Shown: positions 1-46,532 of the stretch, piece after piece
How positions within the stretch are numbered: the stretch's first letter is position 1
Layout: each line of letters opens with the position of its first letter
Sequence record: PZ379549.1
DNA from: a phage
DNA length: 46,532 nucleotides
Reading direction: 5' to 3' (one strand)
Position numbers and translations under genes: made by a program
Notes under the pieces: model-generated
Told to the model about the DNA's origin: nothing
Database searches by the model: none
What the model saw: the letters and a program-made list of their open reading frames with translations, nothing else

Positions 1-8
1 GTTGCCAT
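1..8 (-). CDS. 5' end (start codon) of tape measure gene, if window ends are joined
   Basis: Minus-strand ATG at 8..6 preceded by GGAGGA (17..12); in frame with ORF open to nt 46532; in-frame stop upstream at 44..42. Confidence 0.5.
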
Positions 9-99
9 TTTTCCTCCACTAGTAGCTAATAGCACCAAAAGTCAAAAACAATAAATCTCAGTATGTATAATACATTAACACTTCGACTTTGGGGGTAAA

Positions 100-585
100 A
101 TGTTTAAATATTTGTTTGATTATGATGGAATGAAATTGATATGGAAAAACCCAACATCACCTAGATTCACAAAGGGCGACGTTGCGGGAACTAAGCATAA
201 GAGAGGATACATTCAAGTTTGCTTTAATAGGAAGCTATACCTTGCTCATAGGATAATATGGGAGATGCATCATGGCGAGATACCTGAAGGGATGCAGATT
301 GACCATGTAAATCAGGACAAATCAGATAACAGGATTTCAAACCTAAGGCTAGTCACGCAGCAGGAAAACAAAAAGAACAAACCAAAGCAAGTAAGAAACT
401 CTAGCGGAGTTAATGGTGTATCTTGGAATAAATCAAATGGAAAATGGCAGGTAAGGATAGGTGTAGATGGAAAAGATGTTCATCTTGGGTATTTTGATAA
501 CATTTCAGACGCTAAAAAAGCAAGATTCGATGCTGACTTTAGATTTAAATACCATGAAAATCACGGTAACAAAAAGCGCCAGTAG
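100..585 (+). CDS. HNH homing endonuclease with AP2-like DNA-binding domain (free-standing)
   Basis: 161-aa ORF; HNH-type block DHVNQDKSDNRISNLRLVTQQEN followed by AP2-like block GVSWNKSNGKWQVRIGVDGKDVHLGYF; antisense between tail chaperone and tape measure genes; paralog at 28631-29110. Confidence 0.7.
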   Translation: MFKYLFDYDGMKLIWKNPTSPRFTKGDVAGTKHKRGYIQVCFNRKLYLAHRIIWEMHHGEIPEGMQIDHVNQDKSDNRISNLRLVTQQENKKNKPKQVRNSSGVNGVSWNKSNGKWQVRIGVDGKDVHLGYFDNISDAKKARFDADFRFKYHENHGNKKRQ

Positions 586-599
586 GCGCTTTATTTTTT
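576..599 (+). terminator. rho-independent terminator after HNH gene
   Basis: GCGCC-agta-GGCGC stem-loop followed by TTTATTTTTT. Confidence 0.55.
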
Positions 600-713
600 A
601 TCTCTCATCATATCTAAGGGCTTTAGCTTCCAGCACCCTGATATCGTTAAGTACCATTTCGTCTATCATCTGACTTCGTAAACATCAAACAAGAAAATTC
701 AAGGCAGTTGTAA

Positions 714-1007
714 TCAAGACCTGTGGCGCCGCATGTACCAACCCTCCACTGAGTAGACATGGCGCAGTACAAATCCCAACTTTGCATCATATGCCTCATC
801 GAAGTATAACTCTTCAGGCTCCTCACCGTCATAGTCTGATCTTTTCATTCCAATCGCTTCGAGTTCAGCGTCAGTTGGTGGTGATTGGTACTGCAAAAAT
901 ACAGCGCGCCTTAAATTTTTACCCTTTGTCCCGCTAACGCCTTCATGTATGAATCCATTAATGACGGAACTGCGGCAGGGAAAAGGTTCGCGAACTCTTC
1001 TACGTTC
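714..1007 (-). CDS. -1 frame extension of tail assembly chaperone (gpT-like part of a G-T fusion)
   Basis: -1 frame open from 1007 to stop at 714, overlapping the 3' end of the chaperone ORF; acidic C-terminal segment; position between major tail protein and tape measure. Confidence 0.4.
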   Translation of the reverse strand, partial: ERRRVREPFPCRSSVINGFIHEGVSGTKGKNLRRAVFLQYQSPPTDAELEAIGMKRSDYDGEEPEELYFDEAYDAKLGFVLRHVYSVEGWYMRRHRS

Positions 1008-1264
1008 TCATCGTTAAATGGTTCTTCTAAATCCCAATCAGAGCAGATTTCGTTAATCAATTCTTTGGTGCTGAAGTTCTCACGGTTAAGAATCTCCTGC
1101 AACTCAGATGATTTCTTGTGCTTAACTGTTAGCACTACTTCTGCATCATCGCCATTAGCTAACTGGAACTTAACTGGAAGTTTAAAGTCAGGCAGCGCCT
1201 TAAGTGAAAGTTTAAATTTTGCCATCTCGTTATCTCCTTTGTTTGTGTTTGTTGATTGTAGCAT
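911..1264 (-). CDS. tail assembly chaperone (lambda gpG-like)
   Basis: 117-aa acidic ORF directly downstream of major tail protein and upstream of tape measure, with overlapping -1 frame ORF. Confidence 0.55.
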   Translation of the reverse strand: MLQSTNTNKGDNEMAKFKLSLKALPDFKLPVKFQLANGDDAEVVLTVKHKKSSELQEILNRENFSTKELINEICSDWDLEEPFNDENVEEFANLFPAAVPSLMDSYMKALAGQRVKI

Positions 1265-1272
1265 AAAGTGCT

Positions 1273-1300
1273 ATCAATAAAAAACCCTCCGAAGAGGGTT
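1273..1300 (-). terminator. rho-independent terminator after major tail protein gene
   Basis: Minus-strand RNA AACCCUC-UUCG-GAGGGUU followed by UUUUAUUGAU. Confidence 0.7.
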
Positions 1301-1304
1301 AATT

Positions 1305-1964
1305 TTATACCAGTTCAGAAGCTACAGAACTCAGCCTACCACGGATAGATACTGCGATGGATACCGTTTCGATTTCGTTGACACCAATGCTAGGGGTGTC
1401 GTTGAAAGCGATAGTGCCAGACTGAAGGCGCATCTCACTAGCGCGAGGTACGAACAGACGAATAGCAACAACAGTACCAGCTTCGTCATAGTTACGCAGA
1501 ATCGGATATACCGGGTTGGTGTATTCGTGCGCAAACGTGTAGGTGTTGGTTACCGCAGACTTATAAGTTGGAATCTGCTGCTCACGATCATCAGATAAAC
1601 ACTGGAAGTTAACGAACTGCTGTTCGCCGCCATCAGTGGATACGTCCTGAACACAAGGAACTTCAAACCAAGTAAGAATCTTAACAACTTCACCAGTTAA
1701 GCCAGCTGGGAACTTAGTGGTGTTGGAGGTATCAATACCTTCAACAGTTACGGTTGAACCAGATACCTCGGTAACGCGAACTTGCTTATCAGCCAGCAGG
1801 GTCGAAGCTGAGCTGGTAAATAGCAGGTAATCACCGCGTGCAATATCAGCAACGCTGGACAAAGTTAAAACAGGAGTAACAGCATTGGAAATTGCAGTTA
1901 CGTCGATAGCAGCTCCGCGAGAGCCTTCTACGAACACCTGGGTGCCGTTTGATAAGTGAGCCAT
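1305..1964 (-). CDS. major tail (tube) protein
   Basis: 219-aa ORF with AAGGA RBS; immediately upstream of G/GT chaperones and followed by strong terminator. Confidence 0.6.
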   Translation of the reverse strand: MAHLSNGTQVFVEGSRGAAIDVTAISNAVTPVLTLSSVADIARGDYLLFTSSASTLLADKQVRVTEVSGSTVTVEGIDTSNTTKFPAGLTGEVVKILTWFEVPCVQDVSTDGGEQQFVNFQCLSDDREQQIPTYKSAVTNTYTFAHEYTNPVYPILRNYDEAGTVVAIRLFVPRASEMRLQSGTIAFNDTPSIGVNEIETVSIAVSIRGRLSSVASELV

Positions 1965-1979
1965 GTATTTTTCCTTTTG

Positions 1980-2381
1980 TTAGTCTAGACGAACATAAAA
2001 ACGAACCGGGATAAACCACCCAGACTTGGATTTGATAACGGGGTTAACAACTCCAGACTCATAAATGGTCCCGCTGTCAAGCATTGTACCATCAACGATA
2101 GATTCTGCCAATTTATTAGCGATTTGTCTGGGCCTGTCAATTCCAGTACCAGGACTGAAGAATACTGAAATTTGAACCATGCCTACGTAGTATTTGCACT
2201 TCCTGCTTAATCCGTAGGTTACGGTGTCAACCTCTGTATAGTCGTACTTAAGCCAGATTGATCCATCGGCAGGAGGAGTAAACTTACAGTTCTCCCAAGC
2301 GACTGGATATCTGACCGGAAATTCATTTACCAACAAATCGTTGACGAATTTCCTTGCTGCTAATGATAATTCATATTGCAC
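1980..2381 (-). CDS. putative tail terminator / neck protein
   Basis: 133-aa ORF between neck block and major tail protein; function inferred from position only. Confidence 0.35.
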   Translation of the reverse strand: MQYELSLAARKFVNDLLVNEFPVRYPVAWENCKFTPPADGSIWLKYDYTEVDTVTYGLSRKCKYYVGMVQISVFFSPGTGIDRPRQIANKLAESIVDGTMLDSGTIYESGVVNPVIKSKSGWFIPVRFYVRLD

Positions 2382-3927
2382 GACGTAGCCTCCTCTACAG
2401 CTTCCTGGAAATACCTGCCCAACCTTGCTTGCACCACGCCAAGAACGCCAGCCGGAGCCTGATTCGAAGCCCCATACTCAAGGTCAGCAGGCGTAATCAA
2501 GCCTGTTAGTTATGTAGATAACACTTTGTCGCTGGTGAATTAGCCACAGCTCGAGCTTGCCTTGCCAGATACCTTTTTGTATGCTCCACCTGTTTTGATC
2601 GTAATCATTCAGAGACTGAGCTGAGCTGGGGAGTTCGCTGTAATCTGCCAGTTAGCCTTAAACCTACCAGTATCAACAGGCGATAAATCCACGATGGCGT
2701 TAGCAGCCTTAATTACCGTGTCGGCAGACAACAATATCAGAGAAGTTATCATCAGCTCTATCAATCCAATCAGCAATAGCTATTCGTCAAAGGTAGCCAA
2801 CACCACCAATATTTCTAGCCATAGGTAGCCACCCTCCTTAGAATTGGTCTGTAAGCCAACTACTAGTTCCTGTTGGTTTGACTGGCCTCGGGTCGACTAC
2901 AGTGTAAGTTTCATCTTCAACTATAATCCTGATAGCCCTGCAAGATTGCGGACTTCAGACAGTGAAAATTCCACGCTTGTCACCAAACTGGATATATTCG
3001 CCATCAATATCTCTGCGTTTTAATCTCCCTCACCAAGCCCCTTGATTGAAATGCAGTTGCCGCCAGCTACAGGAACCTCAACGCCGTCAACGATTTCGAC
3101 ACCATCCTTTACCAGTATTCATCTCGTGAATGTACCATCTGCCATCACTAAAGATAGTTGATGCCCGTGCGCATTAATTGATTCTACTTGGGAGTAATTC
3201 ATTGGCAACCGCACTCACCGCCAGCAGCGGACGTAATCAAGCCAAATCCGCCGCCTTTCTTGCGCAGGAGATTCCTAGTAAAGTGCGGCCCCACGGCGTA
3301 GCTGATCAATGATGACCTTGAGTTTGCGAGGTGGATATCATAAGCTGATAGAAAATTCACCGCTCAGCGGAGTAACTTGCCACCTTCTATGGCCATATAT
3401 CATCCAGCGACTTCATTCTCGCCCTTAAGCGCGCCATCAAGAAAGGCATCATGTGCAGATGTGTATAGTCCGACAGCGCTTTATAAGCATCATGCACCAA
3501 ACTTACTGGTCGCAGATGTATAGACTTAGCTAACTCAAGCCATACGTCCAGCGATTCGTCATCTGGAATATTCTTAAGAGCAGGAACCAGCGACTTGCAT
3601 AAAGGCTAATGCTTGTATCGTTCATAAAACCTCCATACAATAAACGGACGCCGAAGCGCCCTGTTTGGTTATTTGTACTCGTTGACCAGTCTCAGCCTCG
3701 GCAGATGGTTTTCGGTTCTTTGCGCTTATATTCTTGCTAACAACTTCTTGCGACGATTTGTTTGGTTGCCTTGGTGTCACCCTCAACCTGGTGAGTTGAC
3801 CCTCTGCGATTAAACGCTTGAGCCCAGTCGCAAATTACCTCAACCTCGAATGAGTGTCACCAGGCAAATATTTCTCACCTTTGTAAACGATAATCGTGCA
3901 CGCTCCAGTGTGTTCTAAACGAATCAT
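2382..3927 (-). pseudogene. frame-disrupted block of head-tail connector/neck genes (at least 4 genes)
   Basis: No ORF >=60 aa on either strand over about 1.5 kb; good RBS+ATG starts at 3927 (AAGGAG) and 3625 (GGAGG, ATGA overlap with upstream stop) each run into stops within 15-30 codons while adjacent frames continue protein-like sequence. Confidence 0.45.
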
Positions 3928-3993
3928 TTATTGCTCTCCTTTTATTAATTGATGGTTGATTATAACCCAACAAATCCATTTAGGTACAGACGT

Positions 3994-4016
3994 AAAAAAG
4001 CCCTCCATAAGAGGGC
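3994..4016 (-). terminator. rho-independent terminator after major capsid gene
   Basis: Minus-strand RNA GCCCUC-UUAUG-GAGGGC followed by UUUUUU. Confidence 0.65.
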
Positions 4017-4098
4017 GATTTATTACGCGAAGGTGATGCCTTTGATTACAGCCATACAGTCAGCGGGCGATAAACAATCAATCCCGTCGCTTTTGAGG

Positions 4099-4977
4099 TT
4101 ACCGGGTAGCGTGAAATGCAGGTCCTTCGGCTGAGCCAGGTAGCACGTTCGTCACTTCTGGAATCTCAATACTCAGGTTGAGCGGATCCTTTTCAAACGC
4201 CAGTGCAGCTTTGCCACCAGCACCGTCGTAGTTATCCAGGAATTGCAGATAACGCAGAGTGATGCCGGAGTTATTGGTTGCAAACAACTGCGCGTAGCTG
4301 ATAGAGGTGTTCGGCACCAGTTCTTGCATCAGGCGGCGAGCGGAAGCAGGCAGCAGGATATCAGTCGCGGTGTGAGCACCATTGGTAGCTGTTTCGATAG
4401 CATCGATAAGCGCTGTGATATCAGTCATAGCAGCAGCCGCGGAGTTCCACGTACCAGCAACAACCTGGTTAACGTTCGGACGCATTGAATACGCCAGGAA
4501 TGCCGTGCGGTGCAGAGCCAGACCATACCAGTTTATCGAGCAGGTTGTCATGCGCTTCAAAAGCCAATGCCTGTTTACGAGCTGACAGTGACTGACCAGT
4601 TGCTGCGCCAGCTTTGATTTCGTCGGTGGAAATCAGGAACGCGTTACCAAAACGGAAAACTTTGCCTTGCTTCTCGGTCATGAACGCATCAACCAGCGGC
4701 AAGGTCATCAGAGTAATCAGCGATAATCTGAGCAATTACCAACACCATCAAACTCTGGATATTCGAAATACTTCGCGTGAGCCAGGAATTTCATTAGTTA
4801 CCGGGAAGATATTAACAACTGAGTTTTCTGCGATATTCTTTTTCGTAAGCGCGATGTCAGAGCTAGCGGTCAAGCTGGCTTAACGGTCCAGATACCAGCA
4901 GCATCAGCTTTATCTACACCCATTTGCTCAAGGTGAGCGGTGATTTTTGCTTGTTCTGCATCAAATTTAATGGCCAT
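4099..4977 (-). pseudogene. major capsid protein gene, interrupted by at least 3 frame changes
   Basis: ATG at 4977 (MAIKFDAEQAKITAHLEQMGVDKADAAGIWTVKPA then stop); capsid-like segments continue in other frames (ORFs 4469-4735 and 4099-4560); position between decoration gene and neck block. Confidence 0.55.
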
Positions 4978-5085
4978 TCTTGTTTATTCCTTTTCAGTTA
5001 GGTATGTACGAGTCAATTATACACGACTTTGTGGTTGTTACAATAGCATCATACATGAGGCTTAAATCTGGATGGCAAAATACAC

Positions 5086-7525: not shown

Positions 7526-8759
7526 TGATTGTTACCTCTGTCTCAATTGAACCTTCACCAATCTTAACCTCAGGGGCTAATGCGCGCAAGGTATCTCGTG
7601 CTTCGTCTGCATCCATCACGCCGTTAGTGATAAGAGCAGTAATTGAATCAACGTTATTCTTCAGTACTTCAGCGCGGTCTTTCTTCGATTCCTGAGCTAG
7701 AGGGTTAAACTCAACTGACCATTCTTGCTCGGTTGTGACGAACGGGATTAAGAACCCAAGAACTGGAAGTAGCTCTTCGTTACGCTTGCGGTCAATCAAC
7801 TTATGGAATGTCTCTAGCGCTGTGTTTTGGCTAGATGATAACCCGCCAACGTTACGACCTTTGAGAATGATTTCATGGATACCGCTCAGAGCAACAATTC
7901 TGTCGAACTTCTTATCGAGGAATCCATCAATCCCACCAATATCCGAGTTAAGAACGCTGTACTCTTCAGCTTCAGCGTCGATACCAATCGCGCGACCAAC
8001 GCCAGAGTTATCATCAACCTGGGCAAGCCTCAACCTGGCCGCACCAAAACCTTCCGCGTCGTCACACAGTTCAGCAAGGCCTTTAGCCTTCCACACCGCC
8101 TGCTGCTTGCGGCGCAATAACTGAGTTGCCAGTTTCTCACACGTCTGATAATCCTTGATTGATTCAAGCAGGTCAGGAACCAGAACGCTAGCACCCCACC
8201 CGTCATTACCGCGACGCAATGAACTAGGAATCTTCTCGCCATCCATAATGTGAACTCGCGAGTAGTGCACATCATAAAACATGGCGCCACCTTCTGGCGT
8301 GATGCGGTACGTTAATGGCTTACCGAATCGCACATTGCGAGGGTTTTCCTCCTTAGTCTGAACTCTTACCTGGCTACGCTCATAAACGCGAAGTGATTCA
8401 AGTTCCGCGCCTTCACGTACCGGGCTAGTTAGCGCACGATTGTCCTTAGCGATAGCCACAATTGCAGAGCCGCCAAATAACCTCGCCCATGACCATGCGT
8501 CAGAGATTGACTCGTTAACCTTCAGGTAATCCCACCTGGACCAGAATTCACCTTCGTCATCAATACCATCGATATGGAAACCTGCGGCGATTGCTGTCTC
8601 CGGTATGGTGTCGACGATGCGGCGTACAATTGAGTTTGATGCGTACAGTGAATCAGCGAAAGGAGGTGTAAGATACGTGTTGCCAAAGTGCCCGTAAATC
8701 TCGCTACCATCACTGGAGCCACCAAGAAATTGCGTGGCGTATGAATCTGCTTTTACCAT
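7482..8759 (-). CDS. portal protein
   Basis: 425-434 aa ORF between terminase side and head morphogenesis gene; ATG 8759 with GGAG RBS preferred, since track start 8786 lies inside terminator stem. Confidence 0.8.
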   Translation of the reverse strand: MVKADSYATQFLGGSSDGSEIYGHFGNTYLTPPFADSLYASNSIVRRIVDTIPETAIAAGFHIDGIDDEGEFWSRWDYLKVNESISDAWSWARLFGGSAIVAIAKDNRALTSPVREGAELESLRVYERSQVRVQTKEENPRNVRFGKPLTYRITPEGGAMFYDVHYSRVHIMDGEKIPSSLRRGNDGWGASVLVPDLLESIKDYQTCEKLATQLLRRKQQAVWKAKGLAELCDDAEGFGAARLRLAQVDDNSGVGRAIGIDAEAEEYSVLNSDIGGIDGFLDKKFDRIVALSGIHEIILKGRNVGGLSSSQNTALETFHKLIDRKRNEELLPVLGFLIPFVTTEQEWSVEFNPLAQESKKDRAEVLKNNVDSITALITNGVMDADEARDTLRALAPEVKIGEGSIETEVTINETSEDPLEVPADN

Positions 8760-8772
8760 TTTATTTGCTCCA

Positions 8773-8795
8773 ATAAAAAGCCCCATTTAGGGGCT
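8773..8795 (-). terminator. rho-independent terminator between moron and portal
   Basis: Minus-strand RNA GCCCC-UAAAU-GGGGC followed by UUUUUAUUG. Confidence 0.65.
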
Positions 8796-8817
8796 TAGTT
8801 TAGCATAGCTTTTATGG

Positions 8818-9171
8818 TTACTCGAATTTTACTTCGAACTTGATTGATGATGTTTTCACTCCATTAAGTGTTAACTGGCGAACCTCCCTTCTGACTTCAT
8901 AAAATGCCTCTTTAGTTACTATGTCTTTGTTGATGAAGTATTTAATCCCAGCCTTTTCAACTTTAAAATTATCACCTTTAACGACAAAATCGGTAGGCTC
9001 TATAACTTCGAAATCATAAACACTAAGATTAATTACGCCCACATAGCCTTTATCATCCTTAACTTTGACGTATTCATTATTACTTTCAGACGTTCTTGAT
9101 AAGTCATAAATCTTACCAACGGTAAATTCAAAATAACCATATTTTTTATACCCTTTAAATACTGCTTTCAT
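8818..9171 (-). CDS. hypothetical protein (AT-rich moron)
   Basis: 117-aa Lys/Tyr/Phe-rich ORF with visibly lower GC than flanks; own box-promoter unit upstream and terminator downstream. Confidence 0.5.
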   Translation of the reverse strand: MKAVFKGYKKYGYFEFTVGKIYDLSRTSESNNEYVKVKDDKGYVGVINLSVYDFEVIEPTDFVVKGDNFKVEKAGIKYFINKDIVTKEAFYEVRREVRQLTLNGVKTSSIKFEVKFE

Positions 9172-10828: not shown

Positions 10829-11353
10829 TTACAGCTTACTAATCACAGACTCCAGCGCTTCCTTCATCGTATCGACGTCGTTAGCTGAAGAGTTGTTGCT
10901 GATGGTAATCTCCTGCGGCTTGTCGATTCCAAGCTCTTTGGAAATCATGCCAGGGTTAATGATGCCAGATGCTGCAAGCTGGTATTTCTGCTCGCGAATC
11001 ACGGAATCAATGAACGCAATCACCTCATCATAACCAGCCGACTTCCTCCATTTCTCGATGGCGCTATGGGTGACACCGCAGTAAAGGCAGAATCCGGTTA
11101 GCGTGAAGACTCGTGGTTTGTGCACCAGGCTCTCTTTTACCACACCCTGGAAGCTGGCTGTCTCGATTGCCTTGATTGCCTGGTTCTCAGCCCATGAGAA
11201 GTATTTCACGGCGAATTCAAATAGCTGTTCGGGTGTCATGCTTCGGTTTTTGGCTAGCGTTGTAATGTCTGAGTACTTTTTATTGTACATGGCTTTAAAG
11301 TTGCCAGAGCGGACCTTTTCTTGCGCCTGACTGGTGAAGTTTTCGTCTTTCAT
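10829..11353 (-). CDS. putative terminase small subunit
   Basis: 174-aa ORF immediately upstream of TerL, AAGGAGG RBS; assignment by position. Confidence 0.5.
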   Translation of the reverse strand: MKDENFTSQAQEKVRSGNFKAMYNKKYSDITTLAKNRSMTPEQLFEFAVKYFSWAENQAIKAIETASFQGVVKESLVHKPRVFTLTGFCLYCGVTHSAIEKWRKSAGYDEVIAFIDSVIREQKYQLAASGIINPGMISKELGIDKPQEITISNNSSANDVDTMKEALESVISKL

Positions 11354-11400
11354 TTTGTTACCTCCTTTGTTTAGAGATGCATTATATCATATAGCAAACG

Positions 11401-11424
11401 AAAAAAAGCCCTCAAGAAGAGGGC
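11401..11424 (-). terminator. rho-independent terminator upstream of TerS
   Basis: Minus-strand RNA GCCCUC-UUCUU-GAGGGC followed by UUUUUUU. Confidence 0.75.
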
Positions 11425-11477
11425 GAAGTATCGAACAACAACGAGAGATATGAAACAAACAGAGAGTAGAACTTCTT

Positions 11478-11666
11478 TTACTTTCGCTCACGAACGTAAG
11501 CTACTAGGAATTTGTGGTAATCCGGGTCGGCACCAGACATTACCTTAACTTTCGCTACTGCTTCCTCTGAGGACTTAGCAGTAACCGACGCGATAAATTC
11601 TTGAGTGCAACTTTTGCAACTACGACCCATTAATCGGATTGAAAGCTTAACATCCCAGAGCTGCAT
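11478..11666 (-). CDS. hypothetical protein
   Basis: 62-aa ORF; may be 3' part of a frame-shifted gene with 11647-11859. Confidence 0.3.
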   Translation of the reverse strand: MQLWDVKLSIRLMGRSCKSCTQEFIASVTAKSSEEAVAKVKVMSGADPDYHKFLVAYVRERK

Positions 11667-43558: not shown

Positions 43559-46532
43559 TTAGTTGTAACCCCTCAGATAAGCAAAGGCTCTTCCGCCCTG
43601 CTGGAATGACTTGCTGATTTCCTCAGCAACGATAACCTTGACTCCAGATTCTATCGCCTTAGCATCATTTCCGCCACCAATTCCAGAGTTTACGTTAACC
43701 GTCACGCCGCCAACACTGACATTCGTGCCACCAACAACTCCACCATTAGCATAGCCAGAGGGCCCACCAACAGCGCCGCCATTTGCATAACCTCGCATTA
43801 GCTTGTACAGGTTCTTAACGCCAATCCTGCTTGTAGCTTCTTTTGTGAATACAAACTCACCGCGGTGCACAGTTCCAGCAGGTTGATACTTCCCGCCGTC
43901 TCCAGTGTAGCCGCCACCAGCAAAGCCAATTGCTGACTTTATTGACTCAAAGGCACTACCTGCTCCAGTGTCACCACCAAAGCTCTTAATTGTAGATTCA
44001 ATAGCCTTTACCAAAAGTAGCTGAGTTGCAATTTTCGCAATCATTTTCAGTATGTTTGCCGTGAACTCCCTGAAATTAGTCTCTCCAGTGGTTACAAGGT
44101 TTGTAATCTGGTCGGTAATTCCATCAAAAGCTGCGACAGTCAAATCCTTAGCAATTTGGTTGAAGTCAGTGTACTTCTCAGTTAAGTCAGCAAGCGTTGA
44201 AGTTACACCAGCTTGCCAGTCTGACCTTAGGTTATCTTCCTGCCTGTAGTATTCTTTTCTTGCTTCCAGCAGATTTTGGAAATCAACATCATTTACAGAG
44301 CCACCCTTGTTTACCTGATTGGACTCTAGCGCCTGAAGTTCTCCTGCCCTTTGCCGCTCCCTTTCGGATAGACCCGCAGCAAGTGAAACATTCTTCGCCT
44401 CATTGGTAATCTGTATTGTCTTCTTAAGGTTGTCATCAAGTAACTTGTTTGACCTCTCCTGAAGCACAATCTGGTCACCAAGTTCAGCCTTCTGTTTAGC
44501 CTGTTCAAGAATGATATTCTTCTGCGCAAGTAGCTTAGCCTGTGATTTTGTAAGCGTACCATCCGCTTGTCTTTGTTCAAGTATTGCAAACTTCGCTTCT
44601 TCCTGGAATAACTGCTTTCTTTCATTGCTTATTACATCATTTATCGTTCTGTGCTCTTGTAAGACCTTTAACTGAGCCTGAAGTGCAAGAACGCCAGATT
44701 CATAAGATAAAGTTAAATCACTTTCTTCTTTTACAGCCTTTTTCCTCTCACTCCTTGCTTTCTTTATCGCATCATACTCATCGGCAAGAGCCTTCTTCCT
44801 TGCTGCAAACTCCTTATCGGTTGATGCATTATTGCCGCTAAGGTTGGTGTTATTGTTGTTCTCGACATAACCAAGCTCACCCTTCCTGATTCTCGCATCT
44901 CGCTCAGCTATGCTTTTTGCTAACTCCTCATTTTGCTTCTTAGCTGCATCAACAATCTTTTGCTGCTCAGCGATTGCTTCATTGCCTAAATCGCCAAGTC
45001 CAGGTATTGACTGAAGTGTCTTGGTTGCTGCTATTGCAAACTCGCCCAATAGGATATCACCGGAGTTTATTAACGACCTTATCTGCTCAATAGTCCCAGC
45101 AACAACGTCAGTTATTAAGTTAAGCGCCCCAAGCGTCCTTTTGCTTATATCATCCCAAATCTCACTTACAAACTTCCTGAAGCTATTCCATGCGCTCTCA
45201 AGAGGGTTAAGGCTTAGTGCTACGTCTGCTAGCCTGTTTTCCATAACGTTAGCGAATAGCTCAGTAGCTGCGGTTACAGCCTCTGTTTCTCCAGCCGTCT
45301 TCCTGATATTCTCAATGTATTTCAATTGCCCAGACTGAAGGAAGTTGAACTGCTTATCGAGTGCAATCAGACCTTGAATTGGGTCCTTTGTAATCTGATC
45401 AAAGTATCCAAGAATAGTTTTCGAGTCTGTTGATGTTACAGTTGCCCATTGTGCTGTCGCCTTGGTTATCTTATCTATCTGCGTAAGAGTCAGATTACCG
45501 TTTGCTACCAGGCTGTTAGCTATCTCCTGGATAAGTCCGCGCGTGGCTAGTGTTGAACTCTCAATTCCATCAACAACCTGATTTATCTGCGCTGTCGACG
45601 TGATAGTTGAGTTGCCAACCAATGTTATCGTTGATGCTAGTCCGCGAGTGTTCTTGTCAGCCTGATAAGCAGCAACACCAAGAGCGCCGAGGGCCAAGCC
45701 CAAAGTCCCAACAACTGCCGTTAATGGGTTAATGGCTGCCAGTGCGAACCTTGCGGTGTTAGCAATACCACCAAAGCTATCCTTAATCTGCCCACCCTGC
45801 TGAATTGCAATTAGCCAGATTGGGATACCACCAGCTAGAGAGGTTCCGATATCTGTAATCTGCGCTGGAAGCTGTCGAATTGCTTGCTTGTATTGACCGG
45901 CACTAAGCCCAGACTTAACAAAAGCGGAGCTTTGCTTCTGCAATTGTACCGCAGATGCCTCGGCAGCCTTTCCAATCCTGTCGATAATCGGTGCAGCCTG
46001 GTCACCAACTCCTAGCTGAGCAGCCTTAAGCTGAAGAAGTTCAGTCCTTGTCAGGCTTGCTGCATTCGCCTCGTTCTCAAGAGATTGAATGAACTTTTGC
46101 GCTGCTGTTGTTGCTTTCTCTTTATCTATTGATGCCTGTAGTGCAGCCCTGCCTTCTTCGCTAAGAGCGGCTTTAGACCTGTTTAGCTTATTGATTTGAG
46201 TTTCAATAACAGAGCCAAGCCTGAAGAATTCATCATCAGGAACTATCCCGGATTCAAATGCTTTGTCCAAATCTGTTGCTGCTTTCTGCAACTTCAGGAA
46301 TTTAGCAGCGGTTGGGTCTATGGCTTGCTGAAGTGATGCGAAAGATTTGCGCTGCTCCTCAAGCTGCCTTGCAGTGTCCCTTGCTTGAGTCTTGGCTACA
46401 AGTTCGGCGTTGACGAAGCTATTAATGCCTGTTGCAGCTTGCTCGTTTGCTTGCCTGAATTTCTGTAAGGATTGCGTACCCTTATCGACCTGAGCTACGT
46501 CGACGGCTAGCGTGATACCAGCAATTTCGTTA
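43559..46532 (-). CDS. tail tape measure protein, 5' end runs off window
   Basis: Long alpha-helical Ala/Gln/Lys-rich ORF; track start 46291 is TTG; hand translation shows frame open from 46291 to 46532. Confidence 0.8.
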   Translation of the reverse strand, partial: NEIAGITLAVDVAQVDKGTQSLQKFRQANEQAATGINSFVNAELVAKTQARDTARQLEEQRKSFASLQQAIDPTAAKFLKLQKAATDLDKAFESGIVPDDEFFRLGSVIETQINKLNRSKAALSEEGRAALQASIDKEKATTAAQKFIQSLENEANAASLTRTELLQLKAAQLGVGDQAAPIIDRIGKAAEASAVQLQKQSSAFVKSGLSAGQYKQAIRQLPAQITDIGTSLAGGIPIWLIAIQQGGQIKDSFGGIANTARFALAAINPLTAVVGTLGLALGALGVAAYQADKNTRGLASTITLVGNSTITSTAQINQVVDGIESSTLATRGLIQEIANSLVANGNLTLTQIDKITKATAQWATVTSTDSKTILGYFDQITKDPIQGLIALDKQFNFLQSGQLKYIENIRKTAGETEAVTAATELFANVMENRLADVALSLNPLESAWNSFRKFVSEIWDDISKRTLGALNLITDVVAGTIEQIRSLINSGDILLGEFAIAATKTLQSIPGLGDLGNEAIAEQQKIVDAAKKQNEELAKSIAERDARIRKGELGYVENNNNTNLSGNNASTDKEFAARKKALADEYDAIKKARSERKKAVKEESDLTLSYESGVLALQAQLKVLQEHRTINDVISNERKQLFQEEAKFAILEQRQADGTLTKSQAKLLAQKNIILEQAKQKAELGDQIVLQERSNKLLDDNLKKTIQITNEAKNVSLAAGLSERERQRAGELQALESNQVNKGGSVNDVDFQNLLEARKEYYRQEDNLRSDWQAGVTSTLADLTEKYTDFNQIAKDLTVAAFDGITDQITNLVTTGETNFREFTANILKMIAKIATQLLLVKAIESTIKSFGGDTGAGSAFESIKSAIGFAGGGYTGDGGKYQPAGTVHRGEFVFTKEATSRIGVKNLYKLMRGYANGGAVGGPSGYANGGVVGGTNVSVGGVTVNVNSGIGGGNDAKAIESGVKVIVAEEISKSFQQGGRAFAYLRGYN

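Follow-up and report, generated by a model that had tools for sequence, protein, structure and literature searches.

The window, a stretch of 46,532 nucleotides (sequence record PZ379549.1), finds its best DNA matches in Escherichia phages TR2, CY1, Rao1 and ES and in the relatives of phage Rtp, with an identity of 78-95% depending on the region. These matches place the phage among the T1/Rtp-like coliphage siphophages of the family Drexlerviridae, with a Braunvirinae-like affinity. The upstream neighbor of the locus studied here is an ORF for the major tail (tube) protein (1305..1964, minus strand, 219 aa), which the major tail protein of phage ES matches in one frame by tblastn, and whose counterparts in CY1, SU57 and Rtp carry the annotation of major tail protein. 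A terminator-like hairpin with a T-run (1283..1300, minus; seven pairs, AACCCTCTTCGGAGGGTT then TTTTATTG) lies between this gene and the ORF of a tail assembly chaperone, the equivalent of lambda 'G', which occupies positions 911..1225 of the minus strand, begins with the ATG at 1225, encodes 104 aa and ends with the TAA at 913..911. Further along the same strand comes the region of a second, 'T'-like reading frame, bounded by another terminator-like hairpin (573..592, minus) that directly follows and overlaps the natural T stop. The stem of this hairpin was detected on the plus strand; it is palindromic (AAAGCGCC...GGCGCTTT), and on the minus strand, too, a T-run comes after it. The tape measure protein gene (43559..46532, minus) has its ATG at 8..6 and its ORF resumes at 46532, which identifies the window as a circular permutation. 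Residues 4-990 of the ES tape measure protein align in a single frame to 46531..43562, and the start of the gene, ATGGCAAC with a GGAGG Shine-Dalgarno (SD) sequence at 17..1 of the minus strand, matches the ATGGCAACTAACGAA start of the relatives. The pair of reading frames is thus situated where a G/GT pair belongs, with the gene for the major tail protein on one side and that for the tape measure protein on the other, all on the same strand. An HNH/AP2 endonuclease gene of the homing type is interposed on the opposite strand (100..585, plus), just downstream of the T region and before the tape measure gene.

The chaperone belongs to the Pfam family PF08748, Phage_TAC_4 (E 7.5e-32; 110.6 bits, the cutoff being 21.1), and also matches phrog_569 and phrog_17368. 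It is 96% identical to the chaperones of CY1 and ES, and its orthologues across Drexlerviridae span 46-96% identity; a sequence search against solved structures gave no meaningful match. The phrog_17368 profile (213 positions) is matched by the chaperone at positions 1-107, by the junction peptide of the window at 107-148 and by the T proteins of relatives at 131-211, so that chaperone, junction and T align to one profile. No frame breaks affect the window's genes for the chaperone, the major tail protein and the tape measure protein.

On the minus strand the 3' end of the chaperone gene reads ...CAA AGG GTA AAA ATT TAA. An earlier note on this DNA had proposed that a -1 frameshift at this point produces a G-T fusion, placing the end of the chaperone ORF (..AGG GUA AAA AUU UAA) at 911 and an open -1 frame from 1007 to 714. 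Both sets of coordinates are correct: the -1 frame is already open at 1007, 29 codons ahead of the slip codon, and closes with the TGA at 716..714. The putative shift site is A_AAA_AUU at 914..920 (minus), with a conserved core A_AAA at 920..917 and the UAA directly after it. The note had described the heptamer as non-canonical and the exact site as uncertain, and rightly so: A_AAA_ATT at 920..914 does not fit the X_XXY_YYZ pattern, as against the A_AAA_AAC found in most relatives. A tetramer of the Z_ZZN type is present, since A_AAA stands in frame 0 at 920..917.

The same junction was sought in other sequence collections. The junction of the window had no match in IMG/VR, and its 66-nt form had none in INPHARED. 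A scan of metagenome_contigs returned three matches with blastn alignments to the window of only 19-28 nt, which we took as chance. An exact-protein look-up identified the ENA metagenome scaffold MUNK22-1 scaffold_152180 (MUNK22-1_152180; 1,029 bp; hereafter L060), which encodes a chaperone identical in protein sequence to that of the window, the two genes differing in 16 codons, all of them synonymously. This independent scaffold also carries A_AAA_AUU_UAA, and the junction common to both is CAAAGGGTAAAAATTTAAGGCGCGC. The AUU variant of the site is real, since L060 has the same junction and the differences downstream of it are predominantly synonymous in the -1 frame.

The earlier note had named an alignment of G/GT junctions in related phages as a check on its proposal, and we compared 49 loci that have this pair of genes, drawn from phage records in GenBank, from IMG/VR and from a single ENA metagenome. 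About 1,100 phage records match the fusion. In 38 of the 49 loci, including Rtp and Tunavirus LHE71, the junction is (GTA or GCA) AAA AAC TAA, that is, the canonical heptamer A_AAA_AAC plus the stop. Seven loci have GCA AAG GTC TAA and retain the A_AAG tetramer only; among them is the isolate Rogunavirus AHP42, whose viability indicates that the family can do without the 3' half of the heptamer. GTA AAA ATT TAA occurs in two loci, the window and L060. The remaining two (L044 and L049) have one A missing from the run and other frame breaks besides; they were considered as natural in-frame variants and dropped, as five A instead of six together with frame breaks elsewhere point to poor assemblies. 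The first three site types all occur at the same codon position, with one sense codon and then UAA. The -1 extension comprises 104-107 codons in untruncated loci, even where the chaperone is only 46% identical to that of the window. As judged from these alignments, the conservation of site, frame and protein over 49 loci is more than chance.

The pattern of variation was analyzed in 39 unique junction sequences. Upstream of the site, the variable positions are the third positions of frame 0, where 12-25 of the 39 sequences differ, and immediately after the heptamer the variation shifts to the third positions of frame -1—the coding frame switches at the heptamer. The 4-fold-degenerate third base of the Val or Ala codon before AAA is an invariant A in all 39 unique junctions. 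The stop after the site is UAA in each of the 39, never UAG or UGA. Conservation of the -1 peptide, K-[KNG]-L-[KR]-RAVYLQYQ..., extends through the family and starts at its first codon. Taken together, the family-wide pattern is strongly suggestive and of the kind classically left by programmed -1 shifting, which here would make a fusion of the G-T type.

A similar signal is seen at a smaller evolutionary distance, between the window and L060. Downstream of the site 18 codons differ between them in the -1 frame, 15 synonymously and 3 non-synonymously; the same differences read in frame 0 would give 0 synonymous and 19 non-synonymous changes. The stretch that leads from the shift site to the first in-frame ATG (KNLRRAVFLQYQSPPTDAELEAIG, 849..919, minus) is translated only if ribosomes shift, and it includes AVFLQYQSPPTDAELEAIGMK, obtainable only from -1 translation upstream of the ATG at 848. 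In the 24 codons from the slip site to this ATG, the two sequences show 8 synonymous differences and 1 non-synonymous difference in the -1 frame, compared with 0 and 9 in frame 0. The 8:1 synonymous bias implies that the stretch is translated in -1, and that this happens within the lineage that lacks the heptamer. Protein-level selection in the -1 frame thus starts at the shift site.

The extension itself is interrupted in the sequence of the window. The literal -1 ORF (714..920, minus) has 68 codons followed by the TGA at 716..714; about the first 43 of them are homologous to T, only residues 1-43 match phrog_17368 (positions 107-148), and the ORF has no Pfam match. In relatives the -1 ORF is Pfam PF08809, DUF1799. 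The full T homologue of the window (DUF1799; 591..920, minus) is broken by inserted bases and has its natural stop, TAA, at 593..591. Alignment to CY1, ES and SU57, combined with a blastn indel map, locates the extra bases at 791 (one), 697-696 (two), 672 (one), 664 (one) and 620 (one), with no deletions. The T protein of ES accordingly matches the window in three different frames. The insertion at 791 moves the DUF1799 core into frame 0, where the ORF fragment 832..650 matches PF08809 over profile positions 20-50 with 37.5 bits (gathering threshold 26 bits). Removing the six bases at the five sites yields a -1 ORF of 107 codons that ends with the TAA at 593..591, at the terminator stem. The repaired T matches PF08809 with 54.7 bits over positions 2-80 of 80 and is identical to that of CY1 in 91 of 107 residues (85%), with 34 synonymous and 16 non-synonymous differences. 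As written, then, the window does not have an intact T, and the domain is restored only by deleting six bases. Position 714, which the earlier note had given as the end of the -1 frame, is the literal stop; judging from the aligned relatives, the extension naturally ends farther on, at 593..591 beyond the inserted bases.

Extra bases are not restricted to T. Compared with ES over 1259-5061 of the window, there are 85 insertion events and 14 deletions; the insertions, for the most part of single non-homopolymer bases, fall predominantly between about 2416 and 5000. They spread the head-tail connector genes over several frames and leave the region homologous to ES 7942-8886, a putative capsid gene, without a long ORF. 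The six extra bases in T and the pattern in 2416-5000 are probably localized insertion errors in the assembly, because a viable phage cannot carry such breaks and because the repaired T is under purifying selection. A literal 170-aa fusion with the broken T would be non-functional. The insertion-rich patches make any ORF-based reading of 600-800 and 2400-5000 unreliable.

We propose that the two reading frames form a pair of the lambda G/GT type, in which tRNA-Lys slips on A_AAA and the DUF1799 T domain is appended to the chaperone. Most ribosomes would terminate at the UAA at 913..911 and release the 104-aa chaperone, and a small fraction would slip back by one base at GU-A_AAA (920..917). 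In this step the peptidyl- or aminoacyl-tRNA-Lys (anticodon mnm5s2UUU) would re-pair from AAA 919..917 to AAA 920..918, and the shifted ribosomes would go on to read AAU-UUA-AGG... in the -1 frame, adding the T domain. The product in the real phage would be about 209 aa long with the junction ...QRVK-NLRRAVF..., and the predicted junction would retain the V-K-N-L of the A_AAA_AAC product of canonical relatives. By analogy with lambda, the G part may bind the tape measure protein and the T part may recruit the major tail protein. The ancestral site was presumably A_AAA_AAC, with the second codon mutated to AUU in the lineage of the window and an A_AAA tetramer left behind. Re-pairing of tRNA-Lys one base back had already been suggested in the earlier note and appears to be the most likely mechanism, as A_AAR is the single element that the three site types share. 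We infer the shifting itself from comparative evidence—synteny, the Phage_TAC_4 family, the switch of frame and L060—which supports the G-T fusion put forward in that note. That the -1 fusion is made in this phage seems to us probable on this evidence, and the account as a whole, with its particular mechanism and domain, reasonably so.

We expect few ribosomes to shift by this route, from a fraction of a percent up to a few percent, with no help from RNA structure. In E. coli, Z_ZZN tetramers, A_AAA included, can direct -1 shifting; in reporters, tetramers that lack a stimulator are barely above background, A_AAG being the most prone to shift and A_AAA the weakest of the six active ones (PMC4066793). 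The canonical A_AAA_AAC is itself a low-efficiency site, and one cluster of IS elements that uses it has proven frameshifting with no established stimulator (PMC4066793). Lambda needs merely a G:GT ratio of about 30:1 (PMC5009743). Folding of the 48 nt after the site revealed no significant structure relative to shuffled sequences in the window (-7.8 kcal/mol, z 0.01), L060 (z 1.65) or CY1 (z 0.48), and a consensus prediction with RNAalifold on 14 junctions contained no pairs. Among the relatives, a significant hairpin occurs in the Tuna- and Tempevirinae only; it is strong (-15.5 kcal/mol, z -3.7) and lies 6-7 nt beyond the site. In the window lineage a rare AGG Arg codon makes an SD-like AAGGG that ends 1-2 nt before the shift site. 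Upstream SD sequences are known to stimulate -1 shifting at a spacing of 10-14 nt, and the spacing of AAGGG is therefore too short for stimulation of the known kind. Neither type of stimulator was thus found at the site of the window: there is no downstream structure, and AAGGG is merely 1-2 nt upstream. Whether the lineage of the window and MUNK22-1_152180, having lost A_AAA_AAC but kept its -1 T domain under purifying selection, makes an essential tail fusion by an unaided slip of tRNA-Lys on A_AAA beside the stop is a proposition we regard as evenly balanced. If true, it would mean, together with the Rogunavirus group that has A_AAG only, that A_AAR is the true conserved shift element of the family, and it would provide a natural test of the minimum signal for a functional programmed frameshift.

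An alternative without frameshifting is that T is made as a separate protein of 83 aa ('TfmS') from the in-frame ATG at 846..848 (minus), by re-initiation or coupling after 911. Braunvirinae and Rogunavirinae relatives have this ATG and T is annotated there as a CDS of its own; the annotators of CY1 and ES start an 83-aa 'TfmS' or 'minor tail protein' at the equivalent position. Loss of the canonical heptamer in the window and the feeble activity of lone tetramers (PMC4066793) would also suit such an arrangement. The ATG at 848 has no usable SD, however, as the only candidate, GGA, abuts it, and in Tuna- and Tempevirinae relatives its position is occupied by Leu codons, so that it is not a family-wide start. 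Nor would a start at this ATG account for the -1 protein selection on the 24 codons that precede it in the AUU lineage (8 versus 1), for a coding periodicity that switches at the heptamer and not at the ATG, or for the alignment of phrog_17368 across the junction. The pre-ATG stretch offers a single potential start codon, TTG 896, and L060, the closest relative, has TTA at that position. The second ORF thus lies in -1, overlaps the end of the chaperone gene and has no conserved start or SD of its own. The earlier note had held that the downstream ORF has no plausible start: this stands for the TTG, which is not conserved, and needs amending for ATG 848..846, which exists, though it lacks an SD and is not found throughout the family. 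We consider separate synthesis of T unlikely. It is also quite doubtful, and a little more so, that both tRNAs slip on A_AAA_AUU, or that a P-site tRNA-Ile slips with UAA in the A site (a 'shifty stop'), to give the junction ...VKI-LRR.... The canonical relatives permit two-tRNA slippage, and the UAA that is invariant in 39 of 39 junctions could be part of the signal; the overlapping -1 codons, for Leu and then Lys or Arg, nevertheless account for much of this invariance. Two-tRNA slippage is unlikely on the site of the window, because moving tRNA-Ile(GAU) from AUU to AAU creates a mismatch at the middle position. Re-pairing from GUC to GGU in Rogunavirus would be equally poor, which leaves A_AAR alone as common to the three site types.

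Two further explanations would dispense with the shift as proposed or move it elsewhere. The GT function could be decaying in this genome, with a degenerate slip site, real insertions and T as a pseudogene: the literal sequence does combine a non-canonical site with five insertion events in T, and an HNH gene of the homing type has entered the genome immediately downstream. Against this, L060 has the AUU site with a clean -1 frame and synonymous-dominated differences, and the repaired T, 85% identical to that of CY1 and separated from it by 34 synonymous and 16 non-synonymous differences, is unlike a decaying sequence. The excess of insertions over deletions (85 versus 14) moreover breaks connector and capsid genes that a viable phage cannot do without, and decay appears to us very improbable. 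We find it hardly credible that the shift takes place at another position or at another level of expression. An in-frame U_UUC_CCU at 983..977 fits X_XXY_YYZ in frame 0, within the part of the -1 frame that is open from 1007; it is missing in ES, SU57 and L060, and the -1 frame in CY1 and ES opens merely 12 codons before the stop. As a shift site it was rejected for want of conservation. Transcriptional slippage could be invoked for the run of six A in relatives, but runs of five or six A are too short, being well below the lengths known for slippage of RNA polymerase.

The preferred reading, a -1 slip of tRNA-Lys on A_AAA, would be a further case of a known kind; the G/GT frameshift is a textbook mechanism, and its presence here is expected. 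None of ten sampled GenBank records annotates a slippage join at this position; T is given as a separate CDS or omitted. Literature searches found no paper describing a GT frameshift in Drexlerviridae or T1, and 'TfmS' was found as an annotation label only. A search of a large protein database with the repaired 209-aa fusion gave nothing at E<=1e-10, a result that is uninformative, the chaperone being known to be in the collection. The main value of the analysis is for annotation, as it shows where the slippage join belongs in Drexlerviridae. The reduced sites, A_AAA in the window and A_AAG in Rogunavirus, could in addition serve to calibrate how much frameshifting tail assembly needs and could show whether tetramers work unaided in vivo.

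The lambda G/GT frameshift was reportedly worked out by Levin, Hendrix & Casjens (1993) and by Xu, Hendrix & Duda (2004, 2013, 2014). The lambda studies are summarized in PMC5009743. The present pair resembles that of lambda in its place between the genes for tail tube and tape measure, in a -1 shift close to the 3' end of the upstream ORF that would yield a minor fusion, in requiring no stimulatory structure and in that neither protein is expected in virions. It differs in the Pfam families involved, Phage_TAC_4 and DUF1799, and in the site, which is the canonical G_GGA_AAG in lambda, A_AAA_AUU in the window and A_AAA_AAC in relatives. Unlike in lambda, the site of the window is directly followed by the stop codon; the extension, of ~106 codons, is the shorter of the two, and the system is known from sequence alone. 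Closer to the window, the Drexlerviridae relatives (Rtp rtp35/rtp36, T1 gp40/gp39, TLS 'TfmS', CY1, ES and SU57) have an orthologous chaperone and a -1 DUF1799 ORF that begins at the same codon position, but with the canonical A_AAA_AAC and an uninterrupted T ORF. The closest precedent for the window is provided by LD32_gp17/gp18 of Rogunavirus AHP42 and six similar loci, which likewise lack the full heptamer and retain A_AAG only. Their A_AAG is, however, the most shift-prone tetramer, whereas the A_AAA of the window is the weakest active one (PMC4066793). IS elements use an A_AAA_AAC that is the same as the ancestral heptamer, yet the product there is a transposase fusion and not a structural chaperone, and the window is without the AAC (PMC4066793). 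The gp12/gp13 pair of Acinetobacter phage Loki, an unrelated phage, differs from the window in having a canonical motif and is a prediction only; as in the window, the predicted site abuts the stop codon (PMC5313236).

The chaperone gene of the window reads CAA AGG (window 923-931) directly 5′ of the putative −1 slip site A_AAA_AUU, a codon pair shared with the ENA metagenome scaffold L060; relatives carry CAG CGN. In both sequences, the pair creates the rare arginine codon AGG and an SD-like AAGGG, located 1-2 nt 5′ of A_AAA.

On the 3′ side of the slip site, Tuna- and Tempevirinae relatives (loci L028-L046, L050 and L051) display a stable hairpin, GGGCGG...CCGCC(C/G), which starts 6-7 nt past A_AAA_AAC (e.g. 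L030:1520-1549) and has a folding energy of −15.5 kcal/mol with a z-score of −3.7. This hairpin, not found in Braunvirinae or Rogunavirinae, is likely a frameshift stimulator. The Rogunavirinae junction (loci L022, L024-L027, L055 and L061; AHP42 record 11002-11633) reads GCA AAG GTC TAA and contains an A_AAG tetramer without a second slippery codon; this A_AAG-only junction is found in phages that have been cultured and are viable. In two IMG/VR genomes (L044:1500-1520 and L049:1500-1520), the slippery run consists of five A instead of six, and additional frame breaks interrupt the chaperone or its −1-frame extension T. Homopolymer sequencing errors are the most likely explanation, in preference to natural in-frame fusions.

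The surroundings of the chaperone and T also differ between the window and its relatives. Window 1226-1304 lacks the small ORF that in relatives separates the chaperone gene from the major tail protein gene and measures 249 nt in CY1, ES and L060 and 387 nt in its Rtp counterpart, rtp34. All that is left there is a terminator-like hairpin and the SD of the chaperone gene. A homing-endonuclease-type gene with HNH_3 and AP2 domains (100-585, plus strand, 161 aa) separates the terminator of T from the start of the tape measure gene and is encoded on the opposite strand. Since the tape measure gene begins ~35 nt past T in CY1, ES, SU57 and Rtp, the endonuclease gene is an insertion particular to the window genome.

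Comparison with relatives reveals a dense and one-sided excess of bases in window 2416-5000 and 620-791. Against phage ES, window 1259-5061 shows 85 insertion events and 14 deletions; the insertions are mostly single non-homopolymer bases spaced ~20-40 nt apart. They split the head-tail connector genes into short ORFs and likewise fragment the homologue of ES 7942-8886, which is likely the capsid gene. Neighbouring stretches (800-2400, the tape measure and portal genes) are clean. The insertions resemble the errors of unpolished long reads.

As a circular permutation, the window is cut after the second codon of the tape measure gene, which is split by the window ends (1-8 and 43559-46532, minus strand): its start, ATG GCA AC, occupies 8..1, preceded by a GGAGG SD at 17..13, and the ORF resumes at 46532.
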